From contig JALVPN010000165.1 of the NCBI GenBank assembly GCA_027031765.1, forward strand, positions 30,001-62,000: DNA of 32,000 nucleotides, in the 5' to 3' direction. Made by a program: the position numbers and the translations under genes. Of the stretch, positions 8,197 through 32,000 are shown one piece after another (within the stretch, counting starts at the first letter, position 1; the number at the start of each line of letters is the position of its first letter). The notes under the pieces were generated by a model, which was given only the letters and a program-made list of their open reading frames with translations, ran no database searches and was not told the origin of the DNA. The stretch comes from Promethearchaeota archaeon. GTDB lineage: Archaea; Asgardarchaeota; Thorarchaeia; Thorarchaeales; Thorarchaeaceae.

Positions 8197-8901
8197 ATGC
8201 AGGAATGGCTTTCCGTAATGTCCATTGACATAGTTTCGAACTATGTGGCAATTGTTGTCTGCACTTGGACGGCGCTTGTAATCGCAAGGCGTTGGCGTTC
8301 GGATAGGGATCCGCTCACGGCCTCGTTGGCCGTGGCGTTTGTACTGCAGTCTGCTGGCCTACTTGCCTCAATATTGTCCGAGGTGCTCCTACGTCTGTCT
8401 GGTGACCACTATGCGGCTGGCATGTGGAGTCTCGTGTTTGTGGTCTCCTTCCTGTTGTCATTCCCTCCAGTAGCCTACTTCCATGCGGGCCTGTTCCACC
8501 CGCGCAACAAGTGGTACGTCCCAGTTGTGTCTTTTCTCTCTGGCTCTGGCGTTGCCCTCGCGACCACAGCTCCCGACTACTACAGCCCGCCGGCATCAGT
8601 ACACGCCATCTTCCTCGCTGTCCTGCTCCTCGTATACCCGCCCATCGCCGTGAGCTGCATGAGGCTCGCGCCACTTGCCAGCAAGCGGCTTACCCGGGTG
8701 AAATTCTGGACGGTCAGTGTATGGGCAGTGGCCCACTCTGCCGCGTACGTCCTGCTGGGCATACCTGAGATCTTCACGATTGCCGGAGTCGTTGTGGTCT
8801 CACTGTATGCAGGCAGTGCACTTGCACTCACGGCATCATATCTCACAGCCTATCTCGGATGGGTCATGCCCTCGTGGTTCCGGGCCCGCTTCAACAAGTG
8901 A
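8197..8901 (+). CDS. 7-TM membrane protein, receptor-like, no cytoplasmic output domain
   Basis: Seven hydrophobic segments by eye and a C-terminal GWVMPSWFRARFNK. SD-like AGGTGA before 8194/8197; ATG 8218 is an alternative start. Confidence 0.75.
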   Translation: MQEWLSVMSIDIVSNYVAIVVCTWTALVIARRWRSDRDPLTASLAVAFVLQSAGLLASILSEVLLRLSGDHYAAGMWSLVFVVSFLLSFPPVAYFHAGLFHPRNKWYVPVVSFLSGSGVALATTAPDYYSPPASVHAIFLAVLLLVYPPIAVSCMRLAPLASKRLTRVKFWTVSVWAVAHSAAYVLLGIPEIFTIAGVVVVSLYAGSALALTASYLTAYLGWVMPSWFRARFNK

Positions 8902-8953
8902 CGGGAGCACTCCGCATCACTCGTCCGGCCTTGGAGCTGGCACTCCCACGTCA

Positions 8954-10108
8954 CTATCTCTTCCGTCCGCGTCTGCGTCCCCCCATCCCTGGTGTTCGCC
9001 TATGCCGGCGCATGAGCCGTTCCTCTCTCTTCCTCTCCCGTGCTGCCTTCTCCTGACGAGAACAGTTAATCCTTGCAGCGCGCCCCAGTCCCATGACGCG
9101 TGCCGCGTCCTCCTCGTCACCCCGCTGCCTGTAGAGCTTCCTGGCCCGTTCCCACGCCTCTGCAGCACCACAGAAATCGCTCAGTCGTGCGAGGGCATGT
9201 CCGAGTGCATCGAAGACATCAGGGTCCTTGCGCGTGATACTACTGAGCCGCTCCCAGATGGCTGCCGCCTCTGCCCAGTCCTGCAACTCCATGTAGGTGG
9301 CCCCCAGGTATCGCAGGGCCGTGACATTCTTCTTGTTGCGGACAAGGGCCCGTTTGAAGTGTACGACCGCCTCTTCCAAGTTCCCTGCACCGTGCTCCAC
9401 GCGGCCCATTGTGACCTCAATGGTGGCATCCTCAGGGTCTATCTCTGCAGCCCTCCTGAGCGCCTTCATAGCGGCCCGGTAGCGTTCCGCCCGCCTGTTC
9501 ACCTCTCCAAGCGTCAGCCATACCTGTTTCGAGTCGGGTGCAGCCTTTGTTGCCGCTTCTGCGGTCTTGACGGCGTCCCGCCAGCGCTCCATCAGTGTGA
9601 GGACAATCGCCTTGTGGAGCATCGCTGGCACTAGGCCCGGGTCGAGTCCGAGGGCCTTGTCAAAGGAGCTGACCGCGTCGGCCAGTCTGCCACGGCCCGT
9701 ATGGATCTCACCAATCCGCAGCCAGAGCATGGGGCTGTCACCACGCCTCCTCACGAGCTCCTGCAGGCACTCCAGCTCCTCATCAGTCCGGCCAAGCACT
9801 TTCAGAGCTGCTGCCCGGTCTACAAGTATGTCCGTATTGTCCGGCGAAAGCCTGAGTGCAGTGGTGAACTCGTCGAGTGCGTGGGCTGCCCTGTCAGGCC
9901 CGAGGGCCAAGAGGATCCGCCCCCTGTTGACATGCGCCTCCACAAGGGACGGGTCCAGTCGTACTGCCTGGTCAAGGCATCGCAGCGCCTCGCCGTAGTC
10001 ACCACTCTCTGCAAGGAGAACTGCCTTGGCATTCCACGCCCTTGCATCTTTGGGGTGCTCTCTGAGGTGCTGTTCCAGAGTACTAAGTCTGTCTTCTGTG
10101 GGGCTCAA
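8954..10108 (-). CDS. TPR-repeat protein with basic C-terminal tail
   Basis: Consecutive 34-aa TPR units (AWNAKAVLL..G.Y.EAL.CLDQAVRLDP; LWLRIGEI...G...AV..FDKAL.LDP). Start placed at TTG 10108. Confidence 0.9.
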   Translation of the reverse strand: MSPTEDRLSTLEQHLREHPKDARAWNAKAVLLAESGDYGEALRCLDQAVRLDPSLVEAHVNRGRILLALGPDRAAHALDEFTTALRLSPDNTDILVDRAAALKVLGRTDEELECLQELVRRRGDSPMLWLRIGEIHTGRGRLADAVSSFDKALGLDPGLVPAMLHKAIVLTLMERWRDAVKTAEAATKAAPDSKQVWLTLGEVNRRAERYRAAMKALRRAAEIDPEDATIEVTMGRVEHGAGNLEEAVVHFKRALVRNKKNVTALRYLGATYMELQDWAEAAAIWERLSSITRKDPDVFDALGHALARLSDFCGAAEAWERARKLYRQRGDEEDAARVMGLGRAARINCSRQEKAARERKREERLMRRHRRTPGMGGRRRGRKR

Positions 10109-10211
10109 TACGGGTCGGTGTGTGCACCGGGACTGGGCATATGAAGGTTGAGTTGCCCCCGGGCACACGGCACTCAGAAGTACTAAAAGGTGTGGTGACA
10201 CGGGGCACAAG

Positions 10212-10946
10212 ATGAATCACGCCTCCTCCCGTCTACTGACACTCGCGACCGTACTGTTCGTGACAGCTGTGTCCCCCGTCCTTGCGCAGGGCCCCTCACT
10301 GTACTGGGCCATCAGTGTGGGTGATGAGTTCACATTTGTCCTCCAGCGGAAGTACGTCGACCCCATGTTTGAGGAGCGGTTGGACGAGTTCGCACCCTTT
10401 GTGACGCGTCTGGATGAGGGGCAGAAGGTCATTGCACATGTTGACGGCCTGGCCGAAATCCCCTCCAATATCTCAGAGCCCTCTCAGGTGCCCAAGTCCA
10501 ATTGTAGCCTCATCAGGGTCAACGACTCTGAGGTGATTGCCCATAACCTGACACTCATTGCCATCCCTATCGGCACTTGGGACTTGGCACATGGCGCTAC
10601 CGGGAACAGCTCGGACGACGGGAATGACAGGCTCACATTTGCGACGACCGAGTCTGAAACGGAGTGGCAGACCCTGCTCACGGGGGACTTCTGGGTCTTC
10701 CTCCTCCACATCACGTTCCGGATGGACACCACATACTCAAAACTCGACGGTGTGCTGAACAGCATTGGTGTCCAGGTCGAGATGAGCGGGAACGACTTCC
10801 TGGATGTACGTTTCACCCGCTACAGCCCCGGTGTACCGACTACCCTGCCGGCGGATGTGCAGCTCCTGACAGTCGCCATTGTTGGGGTTGCGGCAGTGGT
10901 CGTCCTGTCCGCCGGGCTGTTCCTGTACCGCCGCAGGGCCGGATGA
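10212..10946 (+). CDS. Secreted, C-terminally anchored surface protein (paralog 1)
   Basis: Signal peptide (VLFVTAVSPVLA-QG), C-terminal TM followed by YRRRAG. Shares motifs with 11011..11757. Confidence 0.8.
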   Translation: MNHASSRLLTLATVLFVTAVSPVLAQGPSLYWAISVGDEFTFVLQRKYVDPMFEERLDEFAPFVTRLDEGQKVIAHVDGLAEIPSNISEPSQVPKSNCSLIRVNDSEVIAHNLTLIAIPIGTWDLAHGATGNSSDDGNDRLTFATTESETEWQTLLTGDFWVFLLHITFRMDTTYSKLDGVLNSIGVQVEMSGNDFLDVRFTRYSPGVPTTLPADVQLLTVAIVGVAAVVVLSAGLFLYRRRAG

Positions 10947-11010
10947 GGGCATGCACAGCTTTTTCTTGTCGTTTGTACTGAGTCCCGTTCCAGACTCCCG
11001 GGGTGATCCG

Positions 11011-11757
11011 ATGCGTTTGTTCCGTCTTGTGTGGGCACCCATCCTGCTCATGCTCCTCATGTTGCCTGTGCAGCAGGCCTGCTCCCAGACCCCTCACTCA
11101 CTGCACTGGGGCGTGTCTGCAGGTCAGGAGCAGAGGTACGTGCTGCAACGCAAGTTTGCCGACCGCGAGGTCATACCATACCTGGCCTCATTCATCCCCG
11201 TTGTCAGTGTGATTGATGAAGGGCAGACCTTTACAGTCAGGTTCACCTCGTTCGACAACATCCCACCGTCCTTCAACGCCATTAACGGTACTCCACGCGC
11301 ATATTGCAATGTCATCCGTGAGAATGACACTCAGACCGTGCTGCGCAATGTCACCGGTTTTGCAGTGCCCTGTGGGGACTGGGAGTATCTCGAGCACGCC
11401 CTGAACCTCACCGACCAGCCCGGCATCACGCTGATTAACGAGTCCGACACCTGGGGCTACATCGCATCCGGTGCTCATCCCGCGAGTCCGGAGATTTCCA
11501 TATACAATGAGGTGCGGTTCGACAAGTCCAACGGCACACTGGTGTTCCTGCGCTGGCGCTTCACAGGTGCCGGGACAACCCTTACGGACATTGTGATTGC
11601 GCGCTGGTACCCCGGCATCCCCACAGTCCTCCCCATGGGCATTGACCTCGCCCCTATCATCCTTGGCGTCATAGGGATTTCACTTGCAGCAGTCTGTGGT
11701 GTGCTGGCATACCGTGGGTTCAGGAGACCCTCATTGATGGAACGGCTCGGACGGTAA
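11011..11757 (+). CDS. Secreted, C-terminally anchored surface protein (paralog 2)
   Basis: GGTGA SD before ATG 11011, signal peptide, shared motifs SL.W..S.G.E...VLQRK..D, DEGQ, R.ND, P.G.W and PG.PT.LP, then a C-terminal TM with a basic tail. Confidence 0.8.
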   Translation: MRLFRLVWAPILLMLLMLPVQQACSQTPHSLHWGVSAGQEQRYVLQRKFADREVIPYLASFIPVVSVIDEGQTFTVRFTSFDNIPPSFNAINGTPRAYCNVIRENDTQTVLRNVTGFAVPCGDWEYLEHALNLTDQPGITLINESDTWGYIASGAHPASPEISIYNEVRFDKSNGTLVFLRWRFTGAGTTLTDIVIARWYPGIPTVLPMGIDLAPIILGVIGISLAAVCGVLAYRGFRRPSLMERLGR

Positions 11758-11861
11758 TGCTGTTGTTGTCAGGGTGTGGTTGTAGGTGTCGTCCTCGTTC
11801 CACCCGGAACAGCTCGGACGGTAGTGCTGTTGTCATTGTCGACCACAGGAGGTGATAAGAG

Positions 11862-12203
11862 ATGAGTCCGGTCGCTGATGCGCGCAGGGTGGAGTGTCGT
11901 GAGGGCAGCTCGGAGGTGCACCTCTCTGTAGGCGAGTACTTCTACTTCGAGTTCGGCCGTCACTGTTCCGTAGGCGAGGACACAGAGTTCTCCATCTTGG
12001 ACCCGGACATTGTGGTACTGGTAAGGACAGAGGTCGAGTACCTCCATCCCGAGCGCCTGGGTACTGGGATCATAGGGGCGGACGAAGAGCGTGGCAGGTG
12101 GTACTTCAGGGCCGTCCGCCAGGGCACGACCAAGGTGGTGTTCCGCTACCTCTTTCGGGGCGATGTTGACTTTGAGTGCACCCTCCATGTCCATGTCCAC
12201 TAG
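11862..12203 (+). CDS. Chagasin/I42 protease-inhibitor-like Ig-fold protein
   Basis: L.VGE.F pattern, G........W.F.A...G.T.V.F.Y pattern and 113-aa length all match my recollection of I42. The NPTTGY loop is divergent (HCSVGE). No signal peptide. Confidence 0.55.
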   Translation: MSPVADARRVECREGSSEVHLSVGEYFYFEFGRHCSVGEDTEFSILDPDIVVLVRTEVEYLHPERLGTGIIGADEERGRWYFRAVRQGTTKVVFRYLFRGDVDFECTLHVHVH

Positions 12204-12303
12204 CGGCTGTCACCTGCCCTCCCAGCGGTCAACCATCATCAATGAGCCAGTGGGAGCGGGTTAGTTCTCCGTCCCGCGTGTACGTAGCTGGCTGCTGTGG
12301 ATG

Positions 12304-12798
12304 CTACTTCTTGATACCGTAGTAGGTATACATGTCAACAGGAAGCCCCGCGAGCTTGAGGTACACCCATAGCTGCATCTTGTGCATTGCCATGTGGGTG
12401 ATTATCTCAGGGAAATAGTCGCCCCAACTCTTCTCGGCTCCAGTCTCATAGAAGGGCCGGAGATTCTCCTTGAGGAACTCGGTATCTGACATCTTGCTGA
12501 AGTAGTCAATGACATGCTTCACGCCGTCATCGAAGACCTTCAGCATGCCGTTCACATCCTCGCTCCGAAGGCCACTCTCCATCTCTTGTGCCTGTTCGGG
12601 AGTTGCAACCTCACTCGTGTAGACAGCCGTGTCCATGCGGGGGATTTGTGCGAGATGGTTGGCCACCTCAATCAGACTTCGCATTCCATCAGCAGGGCAG
12701 AAGTTCAAGTCTGCGTCCGCTGCCGTCGCTAGAACAAACCTTGCCTGTTGTGCCTCATGCCTGAACGCTCTCAGGAAGGTTTCTACGAGCTCACTCAC
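12304..12798 (-). CDS. DinB/YfiT family metal-binding four-helix protein
   Basis: NHLA and HMAMHKMQLWVYLKLAG His-triad pattern. Strong SD GGAGGTGA before GTG 12798. Confidence 0.85.
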   Translation of the reverse strand: MSELVETFLRAFRHEAQQARFVLATAADADLNFCPADGMRSLIEVANHLAQIPRMDTAVYTSEVATPEQAQEMESGLRSEDVNGMLKVFDDGVKHVIDYFSKMSDTEFLKENLRPFYETGAEKSWGDYFPEIITHMAMHKMQLWVYLKLAGLPVDMYTYYGIKK

Positions 12799-20696: not shown

Positions 20697-21378
20697 CTCC
20701 CGTTTCTTGTAGATTGCGTCTGCTACTTGGTTACGCGCACGGCGGAACAACATTCCAGGAGTGAACAGTTTTGTGGACGGCTCTCTCACTACGCTGCCAC
20801 TAATGTCCCTGCCCGCGAATGCTGTGTACAAGGTGAACCTCCCACTCAATGCTCCCGAATTCTTGGGCTCACCTCCTTGTGAATCCACAAGATGAACAAG
20901 AGTTCTCTTGGTGTACATTCTCTAGACTTGGCAACCTGAAACAATGGACTATGTTCGATTTCAAGGCTGAGTCTGCGTACTTCATGTACACACCCCATTG
21001 GTAGGATTCGATATAATGCCGGGCAATTCAGGGTCTACTGGAAGAAGAACTGGTTGAGCGAGTATATGGTGTCTGAAATGAGGCTTGGGCGTTGCGTCTG
21101 CCCAGACTTCGACATGCAATCCGCCCGTCGTTTCCCCAACTAAGACAAGTAGCCGATATCAACCGCACCAATTCGGAAAAGAATGATTGGGCTAGGAGCC
21201 GCACATGTAGACCCAACCGAAATCCGAACTCAGTTTTCTGAGACTTGGCCTTTTGGATGATGGTAGATGTGCGTTTCACTGTTTTTGAGCAGACGAAAGT
21301 CCTAAATCTGCTTGCGGAACAGGCCCACTGTGCTCCAATCATGAATTTGCACCCCAATATGGAGGGGATTCTCCTACA

Positions 21379-22986
21379 ATGAGAATTCGCGGAATCGAGG
21401 TATCTAATTTCAGGAGTCTCGTGCACTTCGCAATGAAGGATATCGGGAATTTCAACATTCTCGTCGGCCGGAACGGTGCTGGGAAATCCAACATTCTGGA
21501 TGCAATTGATGTCTTTCTCACAAGTCTGAAACGATATCCGCAGTTTCAAGATGTGCCAGACAGTTGCTGGACAAGGCAGAGTGATTCATCTGAAATTTCG
21601 TTCTCATTTGAACTTGAGTTCACCAATGAAGAGATTGAGGTTCCTACTGACGCTGGGGAAAACAATGGTTCACCATCAACTCATAGCGTGGTCATTTCTA
21701 GAACCTTGCGTCGAGAACAAAAAGAGTGGAGTCTTCGAACCCTCAGCATCAACGACCAGCCGCTGGTGAAGGATTACCAAGAGCTTGATAGTAGCGATTC
21801 TGCTACAGTAGCGGAAGTCCTAAAGCAGATTGCTGGTGCAGTTTCGAAATCATACAGGCTACTTGGGTTCTCTAGGTTTGTCGCGCCTCAAGCCTCGACG
21901 CCCGGACAACGAGTCCCGGCGATTCCCGCGAACGTTATCAAAGGGATCATCTCACTGGAAACTGCGGAAACCTCTGAAGCAGACAATCAGTCATACGAGT
22001 TGGAAGAGCAGTTCGAAAGAATGAGTGGTGATACGCTTGCGGTTACTGCCACCTCCATTCGCGTTCGAGAGGGACAAACAAGGATTCCTCTTGAACTTCT
22101 CGGGGTCGGGATTCAGACCACTTTGGGTATGGTACACGACCTCCTGAATCCAACTGGAGTAATTCTCATTGAAGAACCTGAGATTCACCTGCATGCCGGT
22201 CTTCAACGACAGGTTCTTGAAAGACTGAAGGAAGTTAGTGAGAGGTGTCAAGTTTTCATTACAACGCACTCAACAATATTCTTGGATGAATGCGAATACG
22301 GCTCACTCTGGCATGTCAGAAAGACCGGTGGAGTCACGACCGCAACCCGTGTGGAAGGGCTCGATGACTTGAGAAGCATTGTCCTTGGCCTTGGCATACG
22401 GCCTAGTGATGTACTAGCGGCGAACAGCATACTACTCGTTGAAGGCCTCACCGAGAAGATTGTAATCCCCTTTTGGGCGCGCCTTGTGGGGAAGAGGTTT
22501 GAGCCTCCAAAGGTAAACATTGTTCAAATGGGTGGTGTTGGAACGGGACGCTACCATCTTCATCTTTGGAAACAGATGGTAAGTGCCTTCAAGATTCCAT
22601 TTTTCATACTGCTGGACGGTGACGAGGCTGCTAGACGCGAAGCAAAGAAGTTGGAAGAAGAACATGGCGTAAATCCAAGGATGATTTACACTCTGAAGAA
22701 GGAATCAATCGAAGACTACTATCCTGATGACTTGACTATTGAGTGTCTTGAGAACATGCTTTCGCTTCCCCCAGACCAACAGCCGAGCTTGCACGAAGAG
22801 CTACCTTCCTCAGGCAGAGCACGGCACATTGACAAGTTTATCAAGGGGCACAAGCCCAAATCTGGGCCGAACTGGAAAGTACAACTGGCCAAATGTATGG
22901 TAGAAAAGATGAGGGCTGAGCACTTGGATGATGAAATCAGGGAACTGATACTACAAATTGATGATGTACTTGGCCAGTCATCGTAA
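21379..22986 (+). CDS. OLD-family ATP-dependent nuclease (ABC-type ATPase + TOPRIM)
   Basis: NFRSL, Walker A GRNGAGKS, Walker B ILIEEPEIHLH, QVFITTHS, TOPRIM LLVEGLTE and LLDGD. Confidence 0.9.
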   Translation: MRIRGIEVSNFRSLVHFAMKDIGNFNILVGRNGAGKSNILDAIDVFLTSLKRYPQFQDVPDSCWTRQSDSSEISFSFELEFTNEEIEVPTDAGENNGSPSTHSVVISRTLRREQKEWSLRTLSINDQPLVKDYQELDSSDSATVAEVLKQIAGAVSKSYRLLGFSRFVAPQASTPGQRVPAIPANVIKGIISLETAETSEADNQSYELEEQFERMSGDTLAVTATSIRVREGQTRIPLELLGVGIQTTLGMVHDLLNPTGVILIEEPEIHLHAGLQRQVLERLKEVSERCQVFITTHSTIFLDECEYGSLWHVRKTGGVTTATRVEGLDDLRSIVLGLGIRPSDVLAANSILLVEGLTEKIVIPFWARLVGKRFEPPKVNIVQMGGVGTGRYHLHLWKQMVSAFKIPFFILLDGDEAARREAKKLEEEHGVNPRMIYTLKKESIEDYYPDDLTIECLENMLSLPPDQQPSLHEELPSSGRARHIDKFIKGHKPKSGPNWKVQLAKCMVEKMRAEHLDDEIRELILQIDDVLGQSS

Positions 22987-23343
22987 CCACTGGGTTTCCT
23001 ACAATCTATGCCAAGAGTCGAACCGGATTCCAACGGCCTCCACTCGGTTCAAATGTTAGGGCACGCGCGTATCAACTTGGGAGAGCACCGACCACCAAGT
23101 TCGGTGTTGAGTGTTGCAAAGAGAACACAGTTTGGGACGGTACAAGCCTACTCAAACCTACTCGTACCGGGTTCCTAAATGTCCAGGCCTAGGCGTGGAG
23201 TCCGTCCGAACCAGTGAACAGCTGTTTCCACTTGTTGTGTTCTGTCGTTGTCCGGCTCATTATGCGATTGCCAATGCAGCCTAGCGGCGGCCCTGAGATT
23301 CCCCGACGCACGGCCCCATTGCCTTAGGTGGATTGGTTCTGTT

Positions 23344-23361
23344 GGGCACATGCATGTGCCC
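23344..23361. repeat. Perfect 18-bp palindrome GGGCACATGCATGTGCCC
   Basis: Seen directly, between the convergent OLD and Schlafen genes. Function unknown. Confidence 0.85.
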
Positions 23362-23495
23362 TTGCCCTCTTGGTCATTCTACGGAGAAACATGCATCAAC
23401 ACTTGCTACCCGGTCGCACTTCTGGTTTTGTTCATTGTTCCCAGCTGAACGGAACAAGACCATTCATGGTGGAGTTTCAGAGCCATAGCAGTGAA

Positions 23496-25253
23496 TCACT
23501 TCCAGCGCTTCCTTGCGTACTCAACAATCTTCCTTAGGTCATCGATGCCAGTCGTTCTAGCCCCTTCTCTGATATACAGAATCTTCTTCTGTTTCTTCAG
23601 CATCAAGACCGGTTCATCTGCCGGTCTTACGTCAACACGACAGATTTCTTTGTCGTCAACTTGTGGAAACGTGGTGCGGAAAAACTGTCGGAACATACCT
23701 TGGACTTGGCTGTTGAACTTCTGAGTCAAGGATCTGTCAAAGGTATCGGAGCTTGGTTCGTGATGAAAGCAGGAGTAGTCTCGCTCTAGGCCAAGTATCT
23801 CCCCGTCATTCCCGACTCCGATAAGGAGTACACCGCCATCCGAGTTCATGAATGCGCAGATTGTCTTTATCACGGGGTCGTATAATTCACTATTCTTCCC
23901 TTGGAGATTGTAGTCCCACAACATCGATGACTTGAACTCGATGAACTGGGACTCCCCCATCTCTATCAACTCCTCGACAGTGGCCCGTTGGACTCTCTCA
24001 AGTGATGGTGCCCTTGGCCTTGTGTAGAGGTACAGTGCCGCGCATAGCACGGCAAGTGCCACGCTCCACTCGATGACGCGGTAGACAACCATTTGCAGCC
24101 TGGTTGTGGGCAAGAATGACTTGGGCACTCTGATAATGTATCCGTTCGTCGTTCCAAGATATAGATGGCCACGATCGTATCCCGGAATGAGGATTGACTC
24201 AAGAACTTCAGGATACCGGCCCATTGTGAGCTCTTCCCTGCTAATCATTGGAGTGACTGACTGGGCATTGTCATCCAAGTCGATGTATGCAAGTCCCAAT
24301 GCTGTGACCACATACAACCGCTTGAGGTCTACATCGATGTCAATAGCGTTCACAACTCTCGATGGCAATCCGTCATCACTCGTCAGGCGAGAACGAACTA
24401 ACGTTGCGCTAGTTCCGTTCTCGTCGAAGATGAATAGTCCCTCATTTGTCCCTATGTAGATTCTATGGGTGAGTTGGTAGTAGTCTATGCAACTGACACT
24501 TAGAGGGTTCCCTACATCGTCTTGGATATGGCTGAAGTTCACGCCGGTTCTCAGATTGAAGAACGCAAAACCCCTGCCTGTGCCAGCAAGAAGGCAGTCA
24601 CCACGCACTTTGAGCGACCGTACATTGTTTGAGGGCAGACCATTCTCAGTTGTGATGTTTCGGGTTTGATACGTGGATGGAGCGTACTCAACAACCCCGA
24701 TCTGCTCGCTTCCAAGGTACAATACGGTGTCTGATCCATTACGGAATGTTTCAATGTCCCGAAACTCTACGTCCTCTCCTATGTTTGGGATTCGGATGGG
24801 ATCGAATACTACTCGCTGGTTCTCATAGGACCAGTGCATCCAATAGGCTCCTCCATCTGGTCCATCCGTGACCACGTAGCTTAGCCATCTATCCCATGTT
24901 GTTCCCATATCGTATACTCTGCTGCCACCTGTTGCACTGTCAACTGAATGAGGCCCAGATACAGAGTTGTTAGAGAGGTTGACATAGTAGAGACCGCCTA
25001 TTCCGTTGAAGGCTATCATAGACTCGGCAGCATCGAGGAATATCATTGGCCTGATGCTGTACCCCGGGAAACCATTATCTACATGTGTCCACTGCAGGTC
25101 CTCAGAGGCTGGCTGAACAAGCCATCGGTCAACACTGGCCGTAGCAGGGAATACCACCATGAATACTATCACAAGCCTGAGGAATCGCTTGTCAGACCTT
25201 AGTTCTCCGAGTTTCGCAAACACTCCTCCTTGTGCTTTTGTTCTGCCCATCAT
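23496..25253 (-). CDS. Receptor-like protein: signal/anchor, extracellular beta-propeller, single TM, cytoplasmic Schlafen (AlbA_2) domain
   Basis: N-terminal hydrophobic segment; Reg_prop-like repeats ITTENGLPSNNVRSL and LTSDDGLPSRVVNAI; TM at ~24023-24092; AlbA_2 motifs GESQFIEFKSS and TICAFMNSDGGVLLIGV. ATG 25253 overlaps the upstream stop (ATGA). Confidence 0.87.
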   Translation of the reverse strand: MMGRTKAQGGVFAKLGELRSDKRFLRLVIVFMVVFPATASVDRWLVQPASEDLQWTHVDNGFPGYSIRPMIFLDAAESMIAFNGIGGLYYVNLSNNSVSGPHSVDSATGGSRVYDMGTTWDRWLSYVVTDGPDGGAYWMHWSYENQRVVFDPIRIPNIGEDVEFRDIETFRNGSDTVLYLGSEQIGVVEYAPSTYQTRNITTENGLPSNNVRSLKVRGDCLLAGTGRGFAFFNLRTGVNFSHIQDDVGNPLSVSCIDYYQLTHRIYIGTNEGLFIFDENGTSATLVRSRLTSDDGLPSRVVNAIDIDVDLKRLYVVTALGLAYIDLDDNAQSVTPMISREELTMGRYPEVLESILIPGYDRGHLYLGTTNGYIIRVPKSFLPTTRLQMVVYRVIEWSVALAVLCAALYLYTRPRAPSLERVQRATVEELIEMGESQFIEFKSSMLWDYNLQGKNSELYDPVIKTICAFMNSDGGVLLIGVGNDGEILGLERDYSCFHHEPSSDTFDRSLTQKFNSQVQGMFRQFFRTTFPQVDDKEICRVDVRPADEPVLMLKKQKKILYIREGARTTGIDDLRKIVEYARKRWK

Positions 25254-26152
25254 ACAGCCCCCAGAAACCATAGAACAGCATAGGTTGCATTTATCGTGGC
25301 ATGTAGAGCCCATGGTTGTGTCAGGTTCTCAGACAAAAGCCACACCATACCCAGCAGAATCCCTAGCCCAAACCTCGTTATGAACGCCGCAAGAACCGAA
25401 CCTACCGGATCGAAGATATTACCAACGTACTGGGCGTTAGTGAACAGATGACAAACCGCAAAGAGAGAAGAAGCTAGCAACAGCCCTATGGGCTTGCTCC
25501 GGAATCTCTCGGACAGGCGCTGTTGGACTATAGCCCTGTTGACCAGCTCCTCGACAAATCCAATAATGACCCCTCCGTAGACCACTAGTCCCATGAGCCC
25601 GACTAATCGCTCAGGGCTGGCAAGGGTTGGGAATTGGTCAATGACCGGCAACAATCGAATTCCAAAGGATATCATGATTACTACCAGCAGGAAGATAGGC
25701 AGGCTACTGGTCCTCCAAGGTTCTCCACCTCGGATTCCCAGTGATTCCAATGAGTAGCCAAAACCACGCCAGAAGATCACGGCAATCGCCAGACCTGTAA
25801 GGAGAATGGCAATGCTGGCAGAAAGGATGTCAAGGCTTGGAAAGAAACTGAAGAACCACCATCCAACATCGAGATAGATCACTAAAGCGAGTACTGCCTC
25901 TTCAATAGGGTTTCTAGACAGCTTCTCAGGTCGCTTCAGGTGCTGGCTGTGACTCCACAGAAGTGCGCTGCATCCAATGACATTCAATGCCCCAAGCACG
26001 ACAATGTATGATTCAGAATACATGATTGCATATGCCAAACTCGAGGATGTCACCAGAGCCGCCAAGAGAATGATCGCCTTGATATCGCGAGGGTTCAGTT
26101 GAGTTTGTTGCTCCTCTGCCACCTTCGTCACCCCTGCTGGGTGACCCCCCAT
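25250..26152 (-). CDS. CPBP family (CAAX/Rce1/Abi) intramembrane glutamic metalloprotease
   Basis: All catalytic motifs intact: EELVNR (EExxxR), FAVCH (FxxxH), HATIN (HxxxN); multi-TM. GTG 26122, with a GGTGA SD, is an alternative start. Confidence 0.88.
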   Translation of the reverse strand: MGGHPAGVTKVAEEQQTQLNPRDIKAIILLAALVTSSSLAYAIMYSESYIVVLGALNVIGCSALLWSHSQHLKRPEKLSRNPIEEAVLALVIYLDVGWWFFSFFPSLDILSASIAILLTGLAIAVIFWRGFGYSLESLGIRGGEPWRTSSLPIFLLVVIMISFGIRLLPVIDQFPTLASPERLVGLMGLVVYGGVIIGFVEELVNRAIVQQRLSERFRSKPIGLLLASSLFAVCHLFTNAQYVGNIFDPVGSVLAAFITRFGLGILLGMVWLLSENLTQPWALHATINATYAVLWFLGAV

Positions 26153-26243
26153 CTCCCCAAAGAAAAAGCTTGTGCGTCTGAAGCAGCACCATACAGCTCT
26201 CGAGTTGGTGGTCTGGCGAGTCTTCCCGTGCAAAGGACTCAAA

Positions 26244-26277
26244 TACTAAGGCAGCTTAGTACTAATCATGATTAGTA
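26244..26277. promoter_or_regulatory. Tandem palindromic operator TACTAA-N6-TTAGTA x2
   Basis: TACTAAGGCAGCTTAGTA (26244-26261) and the perfect palindrome TACTAATCATGATTAGTA (26260-26277), which is centred on the ATPase ATG. Confidence 0.7.
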
Positions 26278-27629
26278 AATTCATCGACCGTGACGCCGAG
26301 CTCTCTCTGCTTGAAAAGGAGTGGAGGGGGCATGGTGGGAAGCTCTTGGTCCTGTACGGTCGAAGGCGGGTTGGCAAGACCAGACTCCTAGCTGAGTTCG
26401 TCCAAGGAAAGGATGGCGTGTTCTATATTGCGAGCGACTCATCACCGCAAGTCCAGATTGAAGAGCTCAAGACGAGAGTTGCGGACTTCCTCAACGATGC
26501 GTTGCTGAGAGACCTTGAACTCAAGAACTGGGAGCAGTTCTTTGAGTATCTTACGAGGAATCTGCCGTCCAAGAGGTTCTATCTCATACTGGATGAGTTC
26601 TCCTATCTTGTCAAGAGCGATCGGACGATTATCAGTGTTTTGCAAAGGGTATGGGACAGAGTCTTGTCAAATTCCAAGGTCTTCTTGGTACTGTGTGGAT
26701 CGGTAATGGGCCTAATGAGGGATGAGGTGCTCTCCTCGGCATCTCCTCTGTATGGTCGGCGAACAAGGGACATCCTACTGAGGGACTTGCCATTCAAGCA
26801 CGCAAGAGAGTTTGTTTCCTTCCCGTTTGCGGAGGCAATGCAGCTGTACTTTGCAGTTGGCGGCGTACCGGAGTATCTGCAGAAGGCATCAGAGTACCAC
26901 AGCATGAATGAGTTTCTCAGCCGGGAGTTCTTCAGCACCACGGGATACTTCTATCGCGAGCCGTATTTCATAGTGTCACAGGAGTTCAGGGAGCTGAGAA
27001 TCTACTTCTCGATTCTCAATGCTATTGCCACCGGGAGAACACGCCCGACCGACATAGCCAACTTTGTGGGGATTAACGCCCGAAGCGTATATCCGTACCT
27101 GGAGGGGCTCATTCGGATGGACTTTGTCAAGCGGGAGATACCCGTTCTTGGGAGCCCCAAGCGAGGCGTCTACCGGATCAAGGACTCCCTCCTTGACTTT
27201 TGGTTCGGCTTTGTCTTTGGCCATCGGGATGAGATTGAGCGGGGCTCACTGAACCTAGACAACCTGGATCTGTCAGCCTACTATGGGAGGCGATTCGAGG
27301 AGTTCGTGAGGAGTGAGGTCGTCCACCTGCTGTTCAACTACACCAAGATGGGACGATGGTGGCATCGTGGTGAGGAGATCGACATTGTTGCGGTGAACGA
27401 CTCTGCCAATGAGATACTCTTCTGTGAGTGCAAGTGGAGCGACCTCAAGAAGAGGGAGGCCGAGCAACTCATTCAGGGCTTGCAGCAAAAGGCGAGGCTC
27501 GTGAGCTGGGGCACGGAATCAAGGGTGGAGAGATTTGGCGTGGTCGCACGTAGAGTGCGGGGAAAGGAGGGCCTCCGAAGTCAGGGCTATGTCGTGTACG
27601 ATCTGCAGGACATCAAGAGTGTGCTGTAA
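26268..27629 (+). CDS. Archaeal AAA ATPase (ATPase_2) with wHTH and DUF234 / PD-(D/E)xK-like C-terminal domain
   Basis: FIDRDAEL, Walker A YGRRRVGKT, Walker B ILDEFSY, LCGS, SPLYGRRT, GGVPEYL, FWFGFV, and GRWW..GEEIDIVA..ILFCECKW nuclease-like motif. Confidence 0.92.
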   Translation: MISKFIDRDAELSLLEKEWRGHGGKLLVLYGRRRVGKTRLLAEFVQGKDGVFYIASDSSPQVQIEELKTRVADFLNDALLRDLELKNWEQFFEYLTRNLPSKRFYLILDEFSYLVKSDRTIISVLQRVWDRVLSNSKVFLVLCGSVMGLMRDEVLSSASPLYGRRTRDILLRDLPFKHAREFVSFPFAEAMQLYFAVGGVPEYLQKASEYHSMNEFLSREFFSTTGYFYREPYFIVSQEFRELRIYFSILNAIATGRTRPTDIANFVGINARSVYPYLEGLIRMDFVKREIPVLGSPKRGVYRIKDSLLDFWFGFVFGHRDEIERGSLNLDNLDLSAYYGRRFEEFVRSEVVHLLFNYTKMGRWWHRGEEIDIVAVNDSANEILFCECKWSDLKKREAEQLIQGLQQKARLVSWGTESRVERFGVVARRVRGKEGLRSQGYVVYDLQDIKSVL

Positions 27630-28851
27630 CCATTGACCCATCACGTTTCGGGAGGATGCGTTTCACGCATGGCCTATGCTCCCCGCTATCCGCAAGAACA
27701 TACAGTATCACCCCCTATCCTCACTGTTGAGCTGCACAACACGCATTGGGGCAAGTGACCTCAGTCCACATGGCGGTGAGATTGAGAATCGGGAGCTACG
27801 CCTCCAGAATTGTTTCTGAGAGTCGTGGCAAGTCCTTCAACTTTGACAAGCGTTGAATTGCCGAGTCCGACCTCCACACAGTTGAAGTGGAACACAATGG
27901 TCAGTCTTGGTATCTGCAGGTATGTCTTCCGGTGGGCTCGTCGCTTGATGGATATGTTCGTCTTCTCAAGCCACCTATCACTACTGGTCCAATCCAACAG
28001 ATTCTGACGAAGTCTATGAAGGTCAATCCAGTGAGTGGTTCACGAACACTCTACATTTGCGAGATTCGAGTCTGCAGCACAGATGCTCAAGGCAGAGTCC
28101 ACTGTCACCAAGTGAAGTTCAGTGAGCCGTATCCCCCCACTTTGAGCCTCCTGTTGCCGGCTATGGTACAACATGGGGATGGTTCACCCTGCCGCTACTG
28201 ACGTGTGGTCTTCCCGCGTGTCCAGAAAACCAGTATGCGGCCACACAGTACACACTAGGTGGGGTCACCGCCTGCGACGCGCGACACGGGCCATAGGCCC
28301 CAGATATACCCGCTCACTCCACCCGGCCACCGGTGTGACCGTCCTCCGTGCCTCCAACAAACATATCCAACACCACTACCATGGTCACACCTCCTGCAAG
28401 ACCGTTGTCCATAATACGCTCCACTACCATGTTAAGACTCTCGTACGGGGGCTCGTGGGCGTCCACTGGGGCTGGTAGGCCAGAACCGACACGGATGCGC
28501 AACAGGGGGCGAAGCACAGACAGAAGAGCACTCAGACCAAGTGCCACGTGGGCGCTCTGCCTCGCCCTTGCTACTGTGTGACCACACAGGCGGGTAGATG
28601 GTGGATTGGTGTCAAGTGGCTGTTTCACCTCGGATCCCGGACTGGATTGTCGAGTGGAGCGCCCCCAGTGGGCCCCTCCCTGTGCGCCCATCCGCTCGCC
28701 CAGGCCGAGGCCGGGCTCTCGCCCTCACAGACACGCAAGCCAGTCATGTATGTCGCCCAGATGAGCAGCAGCGCACCATACTCCTCCGCACCGATAACCC
28801 GCAACCGGTCGCCCGCACTCCGCAGCACCCGAACCGCCCCCTCCAGCACCG

Positions 28852-29614: not shown

Positions 29615-30598
29615 CTATCGGTCTGACGCGAGCCGCCGCTTCGCGATGACCGCCACAAAGACGATGGCACCCGCTGCTACGACAGTTCCTGCAGTGACGG
29701 GACCAAGCATTGGGTTGGTGATCTCACTAGTGTTGTTTGCTGTCGTTGTGTCTGTTGTTTCGGTCGATGTTGTGGTGCTGTTCGTGGTCACAGTGTCCCA
29801 TATGGACTGCTGGAGAATGAAGAGCAGCGTCCCATTTGACGTATAGTGAAAGTATGTCGGCCAAGCCTGTATGCTCTCATGATCCTGTGCTGTGAGGTTG
29901 AATGCTGCAACGGACCATGTTGGCCTCAAGAGCATCTCCTTTGTGTAGAAAGGTGCCTTGTATATGCAGAACATGGTCGCCGACTCCGTCGGGTCAGTGA
30001 GATACTCTGGGTCCGCACCCGGATAGTACATCGGATAGCCCGGAAGTGGTCTGTGAGTGGTCGGACTGATGAGCACCAGTGAACGAATCCTTGCCTCGGC
30101 CAATGTAGTCCTGAGAACCTCTACGTGAGAGCACTCCAGATCATCCAGTGTGACTGTCTGGGTCCTGACCACTCTCCTAGTCAGGGTCCCATTGTCTTGA
30201 GAACAGCGGTACGTCACGATCAGTTCGATGAAGTACGTCTGATTGAAGCCCCATACAAACAAGGGATGTTCTCCAGGCAGAGAGTAGCCTGCAATCTCAA
30301 AACCCGAGCTCAAGTGGGAGAGTGGCCGAACTGCATCAACAAGTGACTGGTTGGTCATCAGGTCTGGTACTCTCTCTTCCATCATTTCCGTCACATTAAC
30401 TACTTCGTACTCATACGACGCTCCGTCTATGGTGATATTGAGCGAGGCTGAAGGCCCCACTTCTGCTGTGTCACAGTATGTGCCATCAACTGTATGCATT
30501 GACTCCGAAGCGACGGGATACGGCAGAATGGTGGTTAAGGTCAACACCAGAGCAAACATGAGTGCAATAGCCCATTGTCTGTACACGTACACTCGCAT
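29615..30598 (-). CDS. Cell-surface glycoprotein (signal peptide, Thr-rich linker, C-terminal TM), paralog A
   Basis: Signal peptide, 10 N-x-S/T sequons, TTNSTTTSTETTDTTT linker, TM followed by KRR. GGAGGA SD. Confidence 0.82.
   Translation of the reverse strand: MRVYVYRQWAIALMFALVLTLTTILPYPVASESMHTVDGTYCDTAEVGPSASLNITIDGASYEYEVVNVTEMMEERVPDLMTNQSLVDAVRPLSHLSSGFEIAGYSLPGEHPLFVWGFNQTYFIELIVTYRCSQDNGTLTRRVVRTQTVTLDDLECSHVEVLRTTLAEARIRSLVLISPTTHRPLPGYPMYYPGADPEYLTDPTESATMFCIYKAPFYTKEMLLRPTWSVAAFNLTAQDHESIQAWPTYFHYTSNGTLLFILQQSIWDTVTTNSTTTSTETTDTTTANNTSEITNPMLGPVTAGTVVAAGAIVFVAVIAKRRLASDR
30318..30416. repeat. 99-bp perfect direct repeat, copy 1 (copy 2 at 31817-31915)
   Basis: Base-by-base identical at an offset of 1499 nt, while flanking paralog sequence is clearly diverged. 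Confidence 0.9.
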
Positions 30599-30604
30599 AT
30601 CCTC

Positions 30605-31009
30605 CTAGTACCGGTTTGGCCCTACGTAGGCCACCATGTGCCTGACATCGCCGCCGTACCTGGGGTGGACGGGGTTGTACTGAGATGGGAGAAGAAGCCC
30701 GTCTGTGGGATCCTTGTCGTATGGGGAGTTGGATTGACCGTCGAGGCCATCGTCAAGGCAAGACCATATCTGGAAGAACCTGTAGCCAAAGTTCACACGG
30801 TAGTATGCTGTCTGGTTCCAGAGGTGAAGCGTGGGATCCGCGTGGATCCATGTCCACTCTGAGCCATCATGCTGTTCCCACGTATTCCAGAACCAATCAA
30901 ACTCCTGCGGGTCGTATGAGTCCCAGCCCCACAAGGTGAGAGAACTCAACCAGTTGCTGTCCAGCACTGTCTTCGTCTTTCTCTCCACGTTTATCTGAAT
31001 GGCGGTCAC
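30605..31009 (-). CDS. Trp-rich hypothetical protein
   Basis: 134-aa GTG ORF whose stop lies 7 nt before the next start. It contains WTWIHADPT, weakly reminiscent of the transglutaminase-like W-x-H-x-D-P motif. Confidence 0.45.
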   Translation of the reverse strand: MTAIQINVERKTKTVLDSNWLSSLTLWGWDSYDPQEFDWFWNTWEQHDGSEWTWIHADPTLHLWNQTAYYRVNFGYRFFQIWSCLDDGLDGQSNSPYDKDPTDGLLLPSQYNPVHPRYGGDVRHMVAYVGPNRY

Positions 31010-31101
31010 TTCACACCGCTCCTATACCACAATGCACAGTTGTGTTCGCCAGTGGACTCACCTGACATTGCGTGGCCTATGAGTGCAATGGTACTGCAGC
31101 G

Positions 31102-32000
31102 TCATGAGTTTCCTCGCCTCGACCTTGCCAGTATTGCGACTGCCATGAAGGTGACGGCCACTGAAACAGTTCCTACAATGACGGGATTAGGCAATGGGTT
31201 GACAATCTCACTAGTGTTGTTTGCTGTTGTTCTGTCTGTTGTTTCGGTTGATGTTGTGGTATCACTTGTTGTTGTGGTACAATTCGTGACTGGTGGGCAG
31301 AGTGGAATCTGTTCAAGGATAAGGAGTAACGTTCCGTTTGATGTATAGATGAAGAGTACTGGCCAAGCTCTTGTGTTGTTGTCTAGTGGTGCCGTGAGGT
31401 TGTAAGCCATGACAAACCATGTCGGTTCAAGAAACATCTCCTTTGTGAAGAAGGACGCCCTGTACATGCAGGCCCAACCCCACTCACTCGGGTCGGTGAG
31501 GTTCCCTGGGTCACGGCCGAGCTCGTAGAGTGGGTAGCCTGGAAGAGGTCTGTGAGTGATTGGACTGACGAGCTCTAGCGAACGATTCCTTGCCTCGACC
31601 AATGTAGTCCTGAGAATCTCTATGTGAGAGCACTCTAAATCATCCAGCGTGATTGTCTGGATTCCAACCACTCTCCGTACAAAGCTCCCGTTGTCTTCGG
31701 AACAGCGGTACGTTACTACCAGCTCGATGAAGTCTGTCTGATTGAACCCCCATACGGAGATGGTGTGTTCACCTGGCCAGTAGTAGCCCGTACCTGCAAA
31801 GCCAGAACTCATGCCTGAGAGTGGCCGAACTGCATCAACAAGTGACTGGTTGGTCATCAGGTCTGGTACTCTCTCTTCCATCATTTCCGTCACATTAACT
31901 ACTTCGTACTCATACACTGTTCCGTTTATGGTGATGTTGAGCGAGGGCGAAATGCCCGTGTCTGCCTCGCCACTCTCCTTGCCACCGCTTGTTGGGGGTG
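31102..32000 (-). CDS. Cell-surface glycoprotein paralog B (5' end beyond window)
   Basis: The frame stays open to the window edge (...SPSLNITINGTVYEYEVVN). Colinear with 29615..30598 and ends in a Thr-rich linker, TM and RSRR. Confidence 0.85.
   Translation of the reverse strand, partial: PPTSGGKESGEADTGISPSLNITINGTVYEYEVVNVTEMMEERVPDLMTNQSLVDAVRPLSGMSSGFAGTGYYWPGEHTISVWGFNQTDFIELVVTYRCSEDNGSFVRRVVGIQTITLDDLECSHIEILRTTLVEARNRSLELVSPITHRPLPGYPLYELGRDPGNLTDPSEWGWACMYRASFFTKEMFLEPTWFVMAYNLTAPLDNNTRAWPVLFIYTSNGTLLLILEQIPLCPPVTNCTTTTSDTTTSTETTDRTTANNTSEIVNPLPNPVIVGTVSVAVTFMAVAILARSRRGNS
31817..31915. repeat. 99-bp perfect direct repeat, copy 2
   Basis: Identical to 30318-30416. Confidence 0.9.

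Follow-up and report, generated by a model that had tools for sequence, protein, structure and literature searches.

A CPBP intramembrane protease and a propeller-Schlafen receptor as a putative membrane complex of a Thorarchaeales archaeon

A conserved pair of overlapping genes

The window analyzed here is a stretch of 32,000 nucleotides (positions 30,001 to 62,000 of contig JALVPN010000165.1, assembly GCA_027031765.1) from a Promethearchaeota archaeon of the order Thorarchaeales. Two genes on its minus strand are the subject of this work (Table 1). The first encodes a CPBP (Rce1-like) intramembrane glutamic protease, and the second encodes a membrane receptor that joins a beta-propeller to a Schlafen/AlbA_2 nuclease domain. 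An earlier note, made from the sequence alone, had claimed that the CPBP stop (25252-25250) overlaps the receptor start (25253-25251) as ATGA, and reading both frames confirmed this. The CPBP open reading frame (ORF) ends in GTA TGA, and the receptor frame opens with ATG ATG GGC. Use of the first receptor ATG gives the 4-nt overlap, whereas use of the second (25250-25248) would reduce it to 1 nt. The start of the CPBP gene is uncertain and may be ATG 26152, GTG 26122 (chosen in the database gene call), or TTG 26242. An overlap of 4 nt is common in operons and is weak evidence by itself, but the conserved adjacency of the two genes raises the pairing above chance. A sigma-70 promoter and terminator scan of the bacterial type, which is ill-suited to an archaeal host, returned sites no more commonly than in shuffled sequence.

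Fourteen loci carry this clade of CPBP, and a receptor homolog adjoins it on the same strand in all of them, with protein identities down to about 20–25% and with flanking genes that vary between loci. The CPBP gene is upstream of the receptor gene in 13 of the 14. The gaps range from -4 to about +60 nt (294 nt in one gene call), and three loci are interrupted by contig ends. By the terms of the earlier note, receptor homologs that never neighbor CPBP genes would have told against its proposal. The comparison gave the opposite outcome, in that every receptor homolog found has an adjacent CPBP gene and every member of the CPBP clade on a readable contig has an adjacent receptor homolog. Among 5.8 billion protein clusters searched, three full-length receptor relatives were found besides the window's own (46, 44, and 33% identity), and each has an Rce1-like gene of 293–302 aa directly upstream in a different neighborhood. 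Three further loci, all in the window's own taxonomic family, came from 400 searched genomes of the same phylum. On the CPBP side, a profile search of 1.84 billion representative proteins recovered about 13 full-length relatives (E <= 1e-16), which form a small distinct clade, and below these it found ordinary CPBPs that match the catalytic core only. A word-based homolog search with the CPBP protein returned only the window's own protein, and the clade was recovered solely by the profile search.

CPBP genes are absent from the comparison loci. Among 82 control loci, which are AlbA_2-domain matches from metagenome and viral-contig scans (359 kb), none contains a CPBP match at E <= 10. The metagenome scan yielded AlbA_2-domain matches only and no new full-length receptor, and the viral-contig scan yielded two AlbA_2-only matches and no CPBP-receptor module. 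At 15 loci of the same phylum that encode closely similar AlbA_2 domains with other N-termini, no CPBP gene lies within 1.5 kb. The same is true within 5 kb of a membrane-anchored bPH_2-AlbA_2 relative. The idea that CPBPs accompany membrane-anchored AlbA_2 proteins generally was rejected on these three sets of loci. In correction of the earlier note, the CPBP goes with the propeller and the membrane helices of this receptor family, not with AlbA_2 as such. The same note's proposal of a real two-gene module is upheld by same-strand adjacency at 14/14 loci compared with 0/82 control AlbA_2 loci. Furthermore, the pairwise distances of the CPBP and receptor proteins are correlated (Mantel r 0.74, p 0.0002, 9 pairs), as expected for two genes inherited as a unit. 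Given the relatedness of the loci, this correlation indicates linkage rather than co-adaptation.

Several loci differ in their arrangement. In L034 (1-4086) the order is receptor-CPBP-receptor. Upstream of the CPBP gene is the second receptor copy, truncated at the contig start, and this arrangement suggests tandem modules. L035 (607-3368) holds a decaying copy with an intact CPBP gene and a frameshifted receptor gene, in which the Schlafen part is lost right after the first motif ('GESEE'). The only locus ordered receptor then CPBP is L018/L061 (G392:C120; receptor L018 988-2808 and CPBP 69-950, both on the minus strand). The G392 receptor has retained its propeller and membrane helices, but its C-terminal part is a 153-aa domain not recognizable as Schlafen. 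This domain is not AlbA_2 by hhalign or Pfam (best match tRNA_lig_CPD, E 0.014), and its homolog search was empty. ESM Atlas gave a weak lead to PLD-like domains (scores 0.91–0.93), and a single-sequence AlphaFold2 (AF2) model was unusable, with a predicted local distance difference test (pLDDT) score of 44. An effector swap is suggested for this receptor. The L059 receptor was also considered as a non-Schlafen form and rejected, since Pfam identifies a divergent AlbA_2 domain (E 4e-6) even though hhalign missed it.

Table 1. Coordinates of the gene pair, its protein features, and neighboring elements in the window
Feature	Coordinates	Strand	Basis or remark
CPBP (Rce1-like) intramembrane glutamic protease gene	25250..26152	-	300 aa counted from ATG 26152; Pfam PF02517
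CPBP motif 1, EExxxR = EELVNR (aa 201-206; E201, E202, R206)	25535..25552	-	read from sequence
CPBP motif 2, FxxxH = FAVCH (aa 231-235; F231, H235)	25448..25462	-	read from sequence
CPBP motif 3, HxxxN = HATIN (aa 284-288; H284, N288)	25289..25303	-	read from sequence
ATGA overlap, CPBP stop TGA and receptor start ATG	25250..25253	-	bases read directly
Receptor gene	23496..25253	-	585 aa plus stop (stop codon 23498-23496)
Receptor transmembrane helix 1 (TM1; aa 24-45), after basic N-terminal tail	25119..25184	-	AF2 helix 22-45; predicted docking helix for the first CPBP helix
Predicted extracellular seven-bladed beta-propeller (aa 54-377), Reg_prop / hybrid two-component sensor type	24123..25094	-	AF2, Foldseek
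Receptor transmembrane helix 2 (TM2; aa 384-411)	24021..24104	-	AF2; outer end predicted to touch CPBP loop 243-251
Basic cytoplasmic juxtamembrane linker (aa 412-433)	23955..24020	-	alignment; inferred candidate region for cleavage
Cytoplasmic single-lobe Schlafen/AlbA_2 nuclease domain (aa 434-585)	23499..23954	-	Pfam PF04326
Catalytic motif Ex4ExK (E434, E439, K441)	23931..23954	-	read from sequence
Island of lower guanine-cytosine (GC) content, about 0.48-0.52 against 0.57-0.60 in the flanks, ~7 kb	20700..27700	.	holds OLD nuclease, CPBP-receptor module, and ATPase_2/DUF234 gene
OLD-family ATPase-TOPRIM nuclease (AAA_15/AAA_21 and OLD-like TOPRIM), intact	21379-22986	+	PADLOC GajA/Old models, E ~1e-30
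ATPase_2 and DUF234 protein, central winged helix (TrmB, HTH_45 matches)	26268-27629	+	PDC-S27 match, E 6e-43

Architecture of the two proteins and their predicted complex

The CPBP protein matches PF02517 (Rce1-like; cut-off 22.4 bits) at 52.5 bits (E 6e-14). The three motifs lie on successive membrane helices. Their residues E201, E202, R206, F231, H235, H284, and N288 do not vary across 12 members of the clade, which are as little as 20% identical to the window CPBP, and the earlier statement that all protease catalytic motifs are intact (EELVNR, FAVCH, and HATIN) holds. The CPBP protein may be proteolytically active; some members of the family work without catalysis. Hydropathy and lysine/arginine (K/R) counts indicate about nine hydrophobic segments or membrane helices and a cytoplasmic N-terminus. 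Across the clade, K/R-rich and K/R-free loops alternate, which assigns the loop that follows EExxxR to the cytoplasm and loop 239–252 to the outside. Rce1 has a matching orientation, with its cavity open to the cytosol, and the active-site cavity of this CPBP should likewise open toward the cytoplasmic leaflet. Five N-terminal helices precede the catalytic core. A clade-specific invariant Glu (E85; about 25898-25900) is found in this N-terminal extension, in an 'NP-x-EE'-like motif at the cytoplasmic start of the third helix. It is one of several clade-specific invariant residues and lies outside the canonical CPBP motifs.

The receptor was modeled with AF2 from a four-sequence alignment (mean pLDDT 75); of the two receptor alignments, one holds four full-length homologs and the larger one holds nine sequences. 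The model consists of a helix at 22–45 (TM1), an all-beta region at 54–377, a helix at 384–411 (TM2), two short helices, and an alpha/beta region at 434–585. Foldseek matched the ectodomain best to periplasmic sensor domains, those of BT4663 and BT4673 (E ~1e-12 to 1e-10), among seven- and eight-bladed propellers. The pLDDT is 80–94 in the well-predicted blades, and sequence identity to BT4663 and BT4673 is only 13–16%. With the Reg_prop profile (PF07494), the window receptor has no sequence match and its homologs have weak ones (17–28 bits against a cut-off of 20.4). The propeller is placed outside and the Schlafen domain inside because the N-terminal tail and the stretch after TM2 are both basic and because N-x-S/T sequons are enriched in the propeller (1.2–2.1 per 100 residues, compared with 0–1.2 in the cytoplasmic part). 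TM1 may alternatively be a cleaved signal peptide, as its end consists of small residues in an A-x-A-like pattern. TM1 is the helix chiefly used for docking in the complex model.

PF04326 (SLFN_AlbA_2; cut-off 25.3 bits) is matched by the last 150 residues of the receptor at 67.3 bits (E 2e-18). Among PDB sequences, SLFN12 and a chain deposited as Schlafen 8 (5yd0) pass E 0.001, and the matches to SLFN11 (E 0.009) and SLFN5 (E 0.02) are weaker. The domain is single-lobe and aligns with each of the two lobes of SLFN12. The Ex4ExK motif is retained in all eight aligned AlbA_2-bearing receptors and also in L059. Ex4(E/D)xK is the catalytic motif of SLFN11 and of antiphage bacterial Schlafens (PMC13056530). 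The receptor's Schlafen domain may likewise cleave tRNA and protect against viruses.

Prediction of the CPBP-receptor complex gave interaction prediction scores from aligned errors (ipSAE) of 0.68, 0.67, and 0.57, and all three controls, in which the CPBP partner was replaced twice and the receptor once, scored 0.00. In the calibration of the tool, the pass mark was reached by 58/80 solved complexes and 2/110 mismatched pairs; these rates apply only roughly here, because custom alignments were supplied. The runs share at least 70% of contacts, and the partner pLDDT is at least 79. A pass from a memorized solved complex is unlikely because no PDB sequence matches the CPBP profile. Two groups of confident contacts were identified. 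The first brings receptor residues 14–52 (the N-terminal tail and TM1) against CPBP residues 19–44 (the first helix), and the second brings receptor residues 340–343 and 385–396 (the propeller base and the outer end of TM2) against CPBP loop 243–251. Within these groups, receptor residues 35–39 are paired with CPBP residues 36–44, and receptor residues 389–396 with CPBP residues 246–250. These predicted contacts agree with the independent K/R topology, which places CPBP loop 239–252 outside. The models thus support binding of the CPBP protein to the receptor through membrane helices. We regard it as very probable that the two genes form a functional module whose products interact physically.

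Genomic context and a possible mode of action

The module lies in a low-GC island with two defense-type genes within 10 kb, an OLD/GajA-like gene at a distance of about 500 nt and a PDC-S27-like gene at about 100 nt. The latter (ATPase_2/DUF234), a candidate defense gene, is divergent from the CPBP-receptor pair. Neither the CPBP protein nor the receptor matches any family in PADLOC-DB v2.0.0 at E <= 0.01, as expected from the earlier note, which had supposed the pair to be unlisted among defense models. The neighbors at other loci include genes for a GHKL ATPase (L035), a small PLD-like protein (L059), and a MazE-like protein (L012). The distribution of the module is patchy: 5/86 genomes of the window's family (its own included) carry it, and full-length matches are absent from the remaining 314 phylum genomes searched. 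Prokaryotic Schlafens have recently been identified as antiviral tRNases joined to varied sensors (PMC13056530, PMC13462974). A role of the module in defense is probable.

Further features were observed in and around the island. The OLD nuclease gene sits alone at the island edge. The CPBP operon and the divergent ATPase_2/DUF234 gene are separated by a short region with two overlapping palindromic boxes, each TACTAA-N6-TTAGTA (26244-26277), one of which is a perfect 18-bp palindrome centered on the ATG (26268) of the ATPase_2/DUF234 gene. These boxes may be a shared operator. Downstream of the island, at 29615-32000 on the minus strand, are ORFs of 327 and 271–298 aa, and the 327-aa ORF has no Pfam match. 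The downstream gene in L035 is a large GHKL (HATPase_c_3) gene. In G006 (L062, G006:C19), a Hachiman-like PDC-M23A/B pair (8628-12540, minus strand; E 3e-255 and 1e-40) lies directly downstream of the module. One homologous locus comes from a genome labeled Candidatus Thorarchaeota. The window DNA was matched in one hydrothermal-vent metagenome, possibly the source sample, and no RNA run is among the listed matches.

Our preferred explanation, to which as a whole we give a probability of roughly 0.4, is that the CPBP protein and the receptor form a dedicated membrane complex of an Asgard (Thorarchaeota-type) archaeon, most likely for antiviral defense. The CPBP protein would be translated first from the shared transcript and would dock on the membrane helices of the receptor. 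The receptor would span the membrane twice, with its propeller outside and the Schlafen RNase about 20 residues below the membrane. Sensing of a cue by the propeller, possibly a virus particle or a damaged envelope, would shift TM2, so that the basic juxtamembrane linker below it could reach the CPBP active site and be cut. The freed Schlafen domain would then assemble and cleave tRNA or other RNA, and translation would stop. Cleavage in the linker is favored because the clade, although fast-evolving, has kept its catalytic residues strictly unchanged and because the CPBP cavity should face the cytoplasmic leaflet. Moreover, a peptide that follows a membrane anchor at the cytoplasmic face would have the natural geometry of an Rce1-type substrate, judging from the Rce1 structure, and a nuclease held about 20 residues from the bilayer is plausibly hindered until freed. 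The chances that the CPBP protein acts catalytically on the receptor appear to be even. Signal-triggered release as the activating step is a tentative proposal. The most specific version, a Notch-like Asgard immune receptor whose propeller detects virus or envelope damage and whose Schlafen tRNase is freed by an Rce1-type cut at the inner membrane face, is somewhat doubtful.

Several points weigh against this explanation. The confident contacts in the predicted complex include no catalytic residue, and no receptor segment enters the active site, a picture of a docked partner rather than a substrate. The ectodomain is conserved to much the same degree as the nuclease (45 and 48% mean identity among close members) and is not hypervariable as in some virus sensors. 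Several loci have ordinary metabolic neighbors, which counts toward a role outside defense. In the nuclease domain, the 'GVDD' site that supplies D-D-K in SLFN11 reads G-N-D in the window protein, with Gly at the first Asp, then Asn, then Asp. The Asp of 'GVDD', D252 in SLFN11, is the third acidic residue of these nucleases. The position of the second Asp is occupied by Asp in 6/8 aligned Schlafen-bearing homologs and by Asn in the window protein; nuclease competence of the window copy is likely, not certain. The enzymes of classic regulated intramembrane proteolysis are not usually encoded one-to-one beside their substrates. Additionally, the catalytic residues of Abx1 are kept, yet they are dispensable for CovS control (PMC3578759), so that conserved catalytic residues alone do not prove that proteolysis is regulatory. 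Finally, the CPBP gene comes first in 13/14 loci and the reversed locus lacks a recognizable Schlafen domain, a pattern that fits a safeguard as well as an activator.

The contact pattern leads to a different explanation, in which the CPBP protein regulates the receptor without catalysis. It would bind both TM helices and set the conformational or oligomeric state of the Schlafen domain, and a propeller ligand would activate the RNase by clustering, in an IRE1-like manner. The predicted interface, formed by membrane helices together with an outer loop and remote from the active site, is what such a regulator would show. The activity of Schlafens is also governed by their oligomeric or assembly state (PMC13462974). 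Among bacterial relatives, Abx1 binds the part of CovS that contains both membrane helices (PMC3578759), CflP acts likewise on CovS (PMC13692083), and SpdC-WalK is a further example (PMC5854430). The layout of these kinases (TM1, outside domain, TM2, cytoplasmic enzyme) matches that of the receptor. However, 12 sequences down to 20% identity share the four catalytic residues without variation, among them the first (catalytic) Glu, which CflP has lost; this points to selection on catalysis. The bacterial examples are also not known to form a tight one-to-one operon with their kinase. Regulation without catalysis is a competing explanation to be taken seriously, although it is less likely than not.

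The gene order bears on the direction of control. Instead of activating the receptor, the CPBP protein may be a safeguard of the antitoxin or immunity kind, which clips or degrades the receptor or restrains its Schlafen domain until infection or envelope damage blocks the protease or breaks the complex and unleashes the RNase. Translational coupling and an upstream position, by which the protein would be made first, occur in 13/14 loci and fit this role, as does the reversed locus without a recognizable Schlafen domain, but the argument hangs on this one exception. One-to-one adjacency and a predicted stable complex are what we would expect of toxin-immunity pairs. The decayed copy in L035, with an intact CPBP gene and a broken receptor gene, fits any model. 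Bacteriocin immunity by CPBP/Abi proteins depends on the catalytic motifs. This function, one of the examples of the family given in the earlier note, agrees with the published record, since CPBPs in bacteriocin loci contribute to producer resistance (PMC13692083). Overall, a safeguard is a quite unlikely alternative to activation by cleavage.

A role outside defense is more improbable still. The receptor could serve environmental signaling, with a glycan or envelope cue leading the RNase to adjust RNA pools, or the CPBP protein could be a maturation or sorting protease of the Mrt (myxosortase) kind for one surface protein. The best structural matches of the ectodomain are indeed glycan-sensing domains of Bacteroides hybrid two-component systems, and 30% of prokaryotic Schlafen genes are not near defense genes (PMC13056530). 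The nearest named NCBIfam relatives of the CPBP protein are Mrt-type sorting-signal proteases, but all scores are far under the cut-offs (MrtS 21.9/130, MrtJ 18.6/75, and Mrt_core 17.6/100 bits). In addition, the receptor lacks a terminal sorting signal and carries a 170-aa nuclease after TM2. The placement between two defense-type genes in a low-GC island, the Hachiman-like neighbor in G006, and the patchy spread among genomes also argue against a role outside defense.

Significance and comparison with known systems

If the module defends its host, virus or envelope damage would be sensed from outside the cell, as has been proposed for few known defense systems. If gating by cleavage is also true, prokaryotic immunity would have its first known nuclease system of the outside-in, proteolysis-gated kind, in which Rce1 and Schlafen, two families that are also eukaryotic, are joined. 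The Asgard (Thorarchaeota) host is of further evolutionary interest, since Rce1, Schlafens, and receptor proteolysis all figure prominently in eukaryotes. The module would also supply a concrete one-to-one partner for the CPBP/Abi family, which is large and poorly understood, and with it a means to address the question of protease versus scaffold. Only about 14 loci of this rare module family were recovered across the searched protein and genome collections, and its hosts are uncultured.

The component families are known. A Schlafen protein with a predicted transmembrane, outside-facing sensor and a dedicated intramembrane protease partner appears to be new, as it is absent from the literature searched. 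No paper in that literature combines 'Schlafen' with 'CPBP', in agreement with the earlier note, which had named no such pairing among described defense systems. The main text of a survey of 5,930 bacterial and archaeal Schlafens mentions no transmembrane or CPBP-linked class (PMC13056530). The same source reports 55 classes and 558 unannotated clusters.

Among CPBP enzymes, the type II CAAX protease Rce1 shares the Pfam family, the EExxxR/FxxxH/HxxxN motifs, and the cytoplasmic loop after motif 1. An archaeal Rce1 of known structure is MmRce1 (PDB 4CAD). Unlike Rce1, the window protein has no prenylated CAAX substrate and has five extra N-terminal helices with the invariant E85, and the similarity is too low for a PDB match. 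The proposed logic, in which an outside signal leads to a membrane cut and an active cytoplasmic domain, would resemble regulated intramembrane proteolysis of Notch, SREBP, and RsiW (with PrsW and RasP). However, these systems use other protease families, whose members are not known as one-to-one operon partners of their substrates, and they release a transcription or anti-sigma factor rather than a nuclease. PrsW itself, given in the earlier note as a CPBP/Abi protease, belongs to a Pfam family separate from PF02517. Mrt proteases such as MrtS and MrtJ (PMC11980579) are similar in being CPBP enzymes dedicated to particular membrane-anchored substrates. They differ in that the window protein scores below their family cut-offs and its partner is not a short C-terminal sorting tag.

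The CPBP family contains both true proteases and receptor-binding regulators with dispensable catalytic residues (PMC3578759, PMC13692083). In Abx1/CflP-CovS and SpdC-WalK (PMC3578759, PMC13692083, PMC5854430), as predicted here, a multi-pass CPBP binds the helices of a two-helix receptor with a cytoplasmic enzyme output. Those systems are histidine kinases of Firmicutes in which the catalytic residues are not needed, whereas the present module has an RNase output, invariant catalytic residues, and overlapping genes. BT4663 (PDB 4a2l) and BT4673 (PDB 3va6, 3ott) have a Reg_prop-type propeller in an extracytoplasmic sensing position, a fold and placement predicted for the receptor as well; they have two propellers and a Y_Y_Y domain in place of one propeller, and a kinase and regulator in place of an RNase. 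IRE1, considered together with RNase L, is alike in having a far-side sensor, a membrane helix, and a cytoplasmic RNase activated by assembly. The folds of IRE1 and RNase L are unrelated to those of the receptor, which has no kinase module, and the resemblance is an analogy only.

The closest counterparts of the nuclease are the pSlfn defense proteins (RorSlfn5 and EcoSlfn7; PMC13056530) and the CRISPR-associated Cash (PMC13462974), which are also single-lobe AlbA_2 nucleases with Ex4(E/D)xK and a variable fused sensor. The pSlfn genes are described as tending to lie in defense islands, as the window module does. RorSlfn5 and Cash were purified as soluble proteins and sense cytoplasmic cues, according to these sources (PMC13056530, PMC13462974). 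In contrast to pSlfn and Cash, the receptor described here combines a predicted extracellular propeller sensor, split from the nuclease by a membrane helix, with a constant CPBP partner and an Asgard host.

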